NCBI RefSeq assembly: GCF_041886205.1 | Contig: NZ_CP169029.1 | DNA from: Escherichia coli | Lineage (GTDB): Bacteria; Pseudomonadota; Gammaproteobacteria; Enterobacterales; Enterobacteriaceae | Length of the DNA: 64,000 bases | Direction: 5' to 3' (one strand) | Program-made: the position numbers and the translations under genes | In this document: positions 52,823-52,940 of the stretch, piece by piece | Layout of the letters: each line of letters begins with the position of its first letter | Numbering within the stretch: the first letter of the stretch is position 1 | The notes under the pieces: generated by a model | What the model was told of the DNA's origin: nothing | Databases searched by the model: none | What the model saw: only the letters and a program-made list of their open reading frames with translations

Positions 52823-52867
52823 ATGAATGCTGCTATTTTCCGCTTCTTTTTTTACTTTAGCACCTGA
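52823..52867 (+). CDS. pheM: pheST operon leader peptide, 14 aa ([14 protein letters not shown])
   Basis: ATG 52823, stop 52865-52867; 5 Phe in 14 residues; not in ORF track because it is short. Confidence 0.9.
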
Positions 52868-52913
52868 ATCCAGGAGGCTAGCGCGTGAGAAGAGAAACGG
52901 AAAACAGCGCCTG

Positions 52914-52940
52914 AAAGCCTCCCAGTGGAGGCTTTTTTTG
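52914..52940 (+). terminator. pheM attenuator terminator
   Basis: aagcctcccagtggaggctt hairpin followed by a T7 run, about 50 nt after the leader stop. Confidence 0.85.

Follow-up and report, generated by a model that had tools for sequence, protein, structure and literature searches.

Which element lies between rplT and pheS in the stretch of Escherichia coli DNA analysed here, and does it carry all the parts of a phenylalanine-sensing transcription attenuator? Throughout this text, the window is the whole stretch that was analysed, 64,000 nucleotides of contig NZ_CP169029.1 (RefSeq assembly GCF_041886205.1), and all positions refer to it. An initial annotation of the window had placed an intact pheM leader peptide and Phe attenuator before pheST. 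That reading is backed by RefSeq, by identity to K-12, by the Rfam family RF01859 and by gene order. The region 52823-52939 is almost certainly the known pheM leader peptide and Phe-sensing transcription attenuator of the E. coli pheST(-ihfA) operon. The attenuator found here is already known and ordinary; it is the K-12 pheM attenuator proper, beyond mere resemblance.

Identity of the pheM leader

On identical DNA, RefSeq annotates a CDS named pheM ('pheST operon leader peptide PheM', WP_001386830.1) together with a 'Phe leader region' feature. The gene order on this 100%-identical record is thrS-infC-rpmI-rplT-pheM-pheS-pheT-ihfA-btuC, with pheM between rplT and pheS. From the annotation of the same record and the ORF coordinates, the first regulated structural gene, pheS, occupies 53150-54133, followed by pheT at 54148-56535 and ihfA at 56540-56839, all on the + strand. 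The 'Phe leader region' feature of the identical record maps exactly onto the match to Rfam Phe_leader (RF01859) at 52817-52941 on the + strand. This match extends over the full length of the model (positions 1-125 of 125), with a score of 75.0 bits against a gathering score of 55 and an E value of 9.1e-12. The apical part of the RF01859 alignment fits the window poorly, with low posterior probabilities and non-canonical pairs.

The identity to K-12 is complete over the attenuator. In an alignment to a K-12 derivative, 52700-52958 is the same base for base, which takes in the end of rplT, the promoter region, the ORF, all helices and the T run, and it is this identity that justifies the label 'intact'. 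Compared with pheM of K-12 MG1655 (annotated as b1715), the attenuator is without any difference and the gene order is the same, while the distance to pheS is off by one base. Between 52700 and 53170, K-12 and the window differ at 8 positions, all inside a downstream repeat element of about 145 bp. Furthermore, 52690-53160 is 100% identical to NZ_CP025859.1, and it has matches in 5425 of 5426 complete E. coli genomes.

The consensus of RF01859 resembles pheL, the leader attenuator of pheA, and it is on this model that the window's pheM sequence reaches 75 bits. pheM and pheL have a common architecture, in which the coding strand of a Phe-rich leader ORF forms one arm of a long hairpin, and a GC-rich terminator of the type AAAGCCUCC...GGAGGCUUUUUUU follows that hairpin. 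The peptide encoded by pheL differs in sequence from PheM, and pheL controls a biosynthetic gene, pheA, whereas pheM here precedes tRNA synthetase genes. The same logic holds for trpL, hisL, thrL, leuL, and ilvL, where alternative 1:2, 2:3, and 3:4 pairings are set by the ribosome on the regulatory codons; these leaders differ from pheM in their regulatory amino acid and in their sequences. As the attenuator of an aminoacyl-tRNA synthetase operon, pheM is apparently unusual among the trp-type ribosome-mediated attenuators.

Two features of the wider window were observed alongside. Two inverted copies of IS1 (48140-48908 and 60614-61382; 769 nt, 97% complementary, 11.7 kb apart), whose InsA and InsB match NCBIfam NF033558, bracket thrS-infC-rpmI-rplT-pheMST-ihfA-btuCED. 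The left copy adjoins an ORF of 546 amino acids (46432-48072, - strand), which may be espL1, the gene found upstream of thrS in the 100%-identical reference strain, and which may be truncated here. In addition, Rfam STnc540, an enterobacterial sRNA family, has a match at 56781-56939 (+ strand; 67.4 bits against a gathering score of 38). The 3' end of ihfA and the gap between ihfA and btuC both lie within this match, as does a strong terminator hairpin, AAAAAGGCCGC...GCGGCCTTTTTT.

Reading frame, control region, and alternative helices

The pheM leader ORF lies at 52823-52867 on the + strand, with its TGA at 52865-52867, as given by translation and by the RefSeq CDS WP_001386830.1. It reads ATG AAT GCT GCT ATT TTC CGC TTC TTT TTT TAC TTT AGC ACC TGA. 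Five of the 14 sense codons (36%) encode Phe, at positions 6, 8, 9, 10, and 12; they are TTC, TTC, TTT, TTT, and TTT, at 52838-40, 52844-46, 52847-49, 52850-52, and 52856-58, respectively. The translation agrees with the 14-codon ORF with five Phe codons described in the initial annotation, which had also seen a strong terminator hairpin with a T7 run; the scan and the folds reported below recover that terminator with a 10-bp stem and seven T. The two strands of the window contain 656 short ORFs that start with ATG and have 8-25 codons, and pheM is the only one of these that has at least five Phe codons and in which Phe makes up at least one third of the codons. Mononucleotide-shuffled windows yielded 0.15 short ORFs with at least five Phe per 64 kb. 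Judged by its sequence, pheM has what a leader ORF should have: it is short, appears translatable from an ATG with AAGG upstream, and is rich in regulatory codons.

The Shine-Dalgarno-like AAGG, recognized by its conservation across species, is located 11 nt 5' of the pheM ATG (52808-52811, + strand). Across the species examined, the block AAGGTAACGCAAGCA(A)TG hardly varies, and it is read as a putative ribosome-binding site. Further upstream, a candidate pheM promoter at 52756-52784 (+ strand) is suggested by cross-species conservation only. It would comprise a -35 hexamer TTGACT (52756-52761), a spacer of 17 nt, and a -10 hexamer TTCAAT (52779-52784), and both hexamers are conserved blocks in an alignment of 79 distinct upstream sequences. 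A simple sigma-70 promoter scan flagged no promoter at pheM, since the -10 hexamer is without A at position 2. Directly after the rplT stop codon, a hairpin, AAAGAGGGAG-CTAGT-CTCCCTCTTT, followed by TCGTTT, can be read at 52709-52735 (+ strand). This hairpin is kept in most of the Enterobacterales upstream alignments and is presumed to be the terminator of the upstream rpmI-rplT unit, with the pheM control region beginning there. Because its T tail is interrupted (TCGTTT), the hairpin at 52709-52735 was passed over by the consensus terminator scan.

Three helices can be drawn in the leader. The rho-independent terminator (52913-52939, + strand), found by the terminator scan and by folding, pairs 52913-52922 with 52927-52936 and overlaps a T7 run at 52933-52939. 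Its hairpin, GAAAGCCTCC/CAGT/GGAGGCTTTT (52913-52936), has a GC-rich stem of 10 bp and a loop of 4 nt, with a folding energy of -14.4 kcal/mol. The T run consists of exactly seven T and is followed by G at 52940. An intrinsic terminator, as an attenuator requires, is thus present between the pheM ORF and pheS. The second helix, a 1:2 'protector' hairpin (52832-52908, + strand), is formed between the Phe-coding strand at 52832-52855 and the purine-rich segment at 52885-52908. The apical hairpin (52857-52881) of this helix keeps the antiterminator's 5' arm occupied. Folded alone, the 1:2 segment gives a minimum free energy (MFE) of -34.5 kcal/mol, and the hairpin is also part of the MFE structure of the whole leader. 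For the 129-nt leader as a whole, the folding energy is -53.7 kcal/mol (z = -5.7), a stability reached by 0 of 200 shuffles, and the MFE structure consists of the long 1:2 hairpin and the terminator. The third helix, the predicted antiterminator (52873-52922, + strand), comes from the MFE structure of the nascent transcript and pairs GGAGGCUAG.GCGU (52873-52886) with GCGCCU...AGCCUCC (52907-52922); its core is 7 bp, 52873-52879 with 52916-52922.

A duplex as long and strong as the 1:2 hairpin could have the control of pheST mRNA stability as its main task, being a site of RNase III processing and decay, with attenuation being secondary. The duplex region is a published target of RNase III in K-12; the enzyme cleaves the pheM leader in vitro, and loss of rnc slows the decay of the message downstream of pheM relative to wild type (PMC5371410). 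However, the same study treats pheM as an established attenuator (Gordon et al., PMC5371410) and reads the cleavage as turnover of attenuator RNA, which makes processing an added layer rather than an alternative. Furthermore, an RNase III site leaves the Phe codons, the geometry of the stop codon, and the antiterminator unexplained. We consider it improbable that processing is the main role of the duplex, and we return to attenuation as the preferred reading.

Attenuation calls for pairings that exclude one another, and such stem-loops are predicted in the pheM leader. Segment 52916-52922 in the 5' arm of the terminator has two alternative partners, 52873-52879 in the antiterminator and 52927-52933 in the terminator. 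The initial annotation had staked its reading on the existence of such mutually exclusive stem-loops, and had suggested that the alternative pairings would be seen by folding 52860-52945. The stem-loops are borne out; the suggested fold does not show both, its MFE structure containing the terminator and small hairpins but no antiterminator. Equilibrium folds, both of 52860-52945 and of the full leader with ribosome masks, were consequently set aside as a test of the switch, as the terminator state alone appears in them. The terminator fold is favored at equilibrium in every state, by 6.7-12.9 kcal/mol even with the ribosome stalled at Phe. Since the terminator always wins at equilibrium, the switch would have to be kinetic, with the antiterminator forming first; this kinetic step is assumed here, and it would explain why the antiterminator is not visible in the fold of 52860-52945.

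The antiterminator is seen only once the transcript ends before the 3' arm of the terminator. We folded nascent transcripts ending at 52922 or 52926, just before that arm, with the ribosome footprint masked. In the absence of a ribosome, the fold contains the 1:2 hairpin and leaves the terminator's 5' arm free. With the A site of the ribosome at Phe6, 8, 9, 10, or 12, the antiterminator is the MFE structure (-17.0 kcal/mol), and 7 nt of the terminator arm are captured. With the ribosome at the TGA, 52873-52878 is covered, the antiterminator is absent (-5.7 kcal/mol), and 0 nt of the terminator arm are captured. These outcomes were unchanged for assumed downstream footprint edges from +10 to +16 nt. 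In silico, the choice of pairing is predicted to follow the position of the ribosome exactly as the classical attenuation model requires.

Attenuation control of pheST was reportedly demonstrated by Fayat et al. in 1983 (J Mol Biol 171:239) and by Springer et al. in 1985 (J Mol Biol 181:467), and the in vivo response to Phe-tRNA charging is taken here from established work on the identical K-12 sequence. On this basis, transcription would start shortly after the rplT terminator, and the 14-codon pheM ORF would be translated while RNA polymerase transcribes the leader. When charged tRNA-Phe is scarce, the ribosome would stall on the Phe codons (52838-52858), preventing the coding strand from entering the 1:2 hairpin and leaving 52873-52886 free. 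The free segment would pair with 52907-52922 once the latter has been made, so that the 5' arm of the terminator would be sequestered and transcription would read through into pheS and pheT. When Phe-tRNA is plentiful, the ribosome would reach the TGA (52865-52867) and cover 52873-52878, which would block the antiterminator; the hairpin at 52913-52936 and its T7 run would then terminate transcription. In the absence of translation, the 1:2 hairpin would form, leading to termination too. A reporter of the pheM attenuator has been used elsewhere (PMC3831192).

Conservation across Enterobacterales and alternative readings

A PheS scan with one genome per species gave 80 Enterobacterales loci, from genera including Escherichia, Salmonella, Citrobacter, Erwinia, Pantoea, Yersinia, Dickeya, Pectobacterium, Edwardsiella, Hafnia, and Lonsdalea. 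In 78 of the 80 loci, pheS is preceded by a leader ORF that encodes the core FRFFFYF, the other 2 having too little upstream DNA. The N-terminal residues of PheM and its last residue vary, and the changes in the core are synonymous (CGC/CGT, TTC/TTT). From about 78 of these species, 74 distinct orthologous leaders were drawn and folded individually. Capture of the terminator's 5' arm over 5 nt or more was seen in 74/74 leaders when the ribosome was stalled on Phe. With the ribosome at the stop codon, the same was seen in 0/74, and with no ribosome in 8/74.

Conservation of the helices was scored on a covariance-model alignment. A MAFFT alignment of the 74 leaders with RNAalifold had brought the terminator columns out of register and had given a consensus fold without the terminator, and the covariance model was used instead. 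The model was built from twelve close sequences. A first search with it at E 0.01 included reverse-strand echoes of the hairpins, and the resulting alignment was discarded; only + strand matches were kept thereafter, giving one leader match per locus at 64-152 bits. In the alignment of 79 sequences, which had been fitted to the 1:2 hairpin and the terminator and so favors them, 94.2% of the cells of these two helices were paired, against 35-68% in slid controls, and 9 pairs had changed on both sides, more than in any of 500 shuffles. The terminator helix by itself had 99.4% of its cells paired and 4 pairs changed on both sides, and it was kept in all 79 aligned leaders. Pairing potential of the antiterminator was kept in 93.6% of the cells, and in 98.6% of those of the 7-bp core, vs 28-67% in slid controls. 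In the same alignment, covariation in the antiterminator did not rise above shuffles, because its arms are nearly invariant. Support for the antiterminator, as read from these sequences, is therefore conserved pairing potential together with per-sequence folding, not compensatory change.

These data bear on a second alternative, namely that the hairpin and T run do no more than separate the rplT unit from the pheS unit, as a constitutive terminator or insulator of the ordinary kind, and that the Phe-rich mini-ORF arose by chance from the T-rich arm. Such a reading can draw on the fact that the T-rich coding strand is also an arm of the long hairpin, which could alone explain its conservation, and on the terminator fold always being the equilibrium state. 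Shuffled sequence does yield about 0.15 short ORFs with at least five Phe per 64 kb, so that the mini-ORF could have come about in this way. However, 78/80 species loci preserve the pheM ATG, frame, and stop codon, with the AAGG at fixed spacing, and the variation in the core is synonymous while the N-terminal residues drift. In 74/74 sequences, the stop codon is at such a position that the antiterminator arm lies under the terminating ribosome. Moreover, pheM is treated as an attenuator in two published studies (PMC5371410, PMC3831192), and a separate terminator-like hairpin already follows rplT at 52709-52735. With this evidence on both sides, a constitutive terminator appears very unlikely, and ribosome-mediated attenuation remains the preferred reading.

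Both strands of 49000-57500 were scanned with Rfam at E values up to 1, and neither a T-box nor another cis-regulatory family was matched. The matches in this interval were Phe_leader above threshold, STnc540, and two at chance level; the latter, sX9 and mir-5444, were rejected as chance, being far below their thresholds at E values of about 0.9. In Firmicutes, pheS is under a T-box riboswitch, and E. coli thrS is autoregulated. That pheST is controlled by direct tRNA sensing or by a protein-binding RNA (a Firmicutes pheS-type T-box or thrS-like autoregulation) and not by leader translation is scarcely credible, for although other aminoacyl-tRNA synthetase genes are known to work in such ways, thrS in the same window among them, the anatomy here (leader ORF, 1:2 hairpin, antiterminator, and terminator) is that of a ribosome-mediated attenuator.

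The spacer before pheS and the meaning of the locus

The pheM attenuator does lie upstream of pheS, as the initial annotation had said, with the pheS ATG at 53150, though the two are not adjacent. The T run and the ATG are 210 nt apart, and about 145 of these nucleotides belong to a repeat element. The element is an imperfect palindrome of ~145 bp at 52959-53105, with TAA at both ends (52959-61 and 53105-07), which may or may not be a target-site duplication, and it is unannotated in RefSeq. It folds as one long hairpin (-60.1 kcal/mol, z -4.7). The repeat at this site is present in ~88% of complete E. coli genomes and absent from about 12%, as well as from the E. coli species representative. 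E. coli genomes hold a median of 5 copies and at most 8. The original K-12 record described an 'RSA' repeat of 150/151 bp with 6 copies (PMC5172473), and by size and copy number alone the element at 52959-53105 is a candidate for 'RSA'. The current K-12 record lists no repeat feature at this site. The repeat is the only feature near the attenuator that is not textbook material.

In NZ_CP090611.1 (named 'E. coli', 4.42 Mb, from pig), the 471-nt query was matched via the repeat only, at 83.7% identity, and the pheM leader was unmatched. A divergent or wrongly assigned genome may account for this, as may a rearrangement of the region.

Spacer length also varies from species to species, with 156 to 481 nt lying between the pheM ATG and pheS. 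Loci that stood out for their spacer belong to Citrobacter and Kluyvera (L010, L012, L014-L017, L019, L026, and L032) and to Yersinia (L067-L069 and L082). Several Citrobacter loci have, directly after the pheM T run, a sequence starting TATACGCGTCATCCTTCAAGTTG, which we take to be ERIC/IRU-like. These observations suggest that the spacer between the attenuator and pheS is a tolerated insertion site for small palindromic elements.

Being part of the 5' UTR of pheS in the read-through transcript, the repeat might alter pheST expression, for example by being processed by RNase III or RNase E, by changing the stability of the mRNA, or by making polymerase pause after the attenuator, an idea that we regard as doubtful. 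If it were true, strains would differ heritably in the level of PheRS or in the gain of the Phe switch. More generally, the attenuator-pheS spacer would then be a tolerated hot spot for small palindromic insertions across Enterobacterales.

As a discovery, the pheM attenuator matters little, as it is a textbook device for which standard pipelines annotate both the CDS and an Rfam-derived 'Phe leader region'. The case does illustrate that reading the letters of a genome by themselves can recognize a leader-peptide attenuator that is too short for ORF callers. Furthermore, since the antiterminator is not seen when the full leader is folded at equilibrium, validating leader-peptide attenuators needs folding of nascent, ribosome-masked transcripts. 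For the family as a whole, the three-helix logic of the pheM attenuator is conserved essentially unchanged across Enterobacterales.
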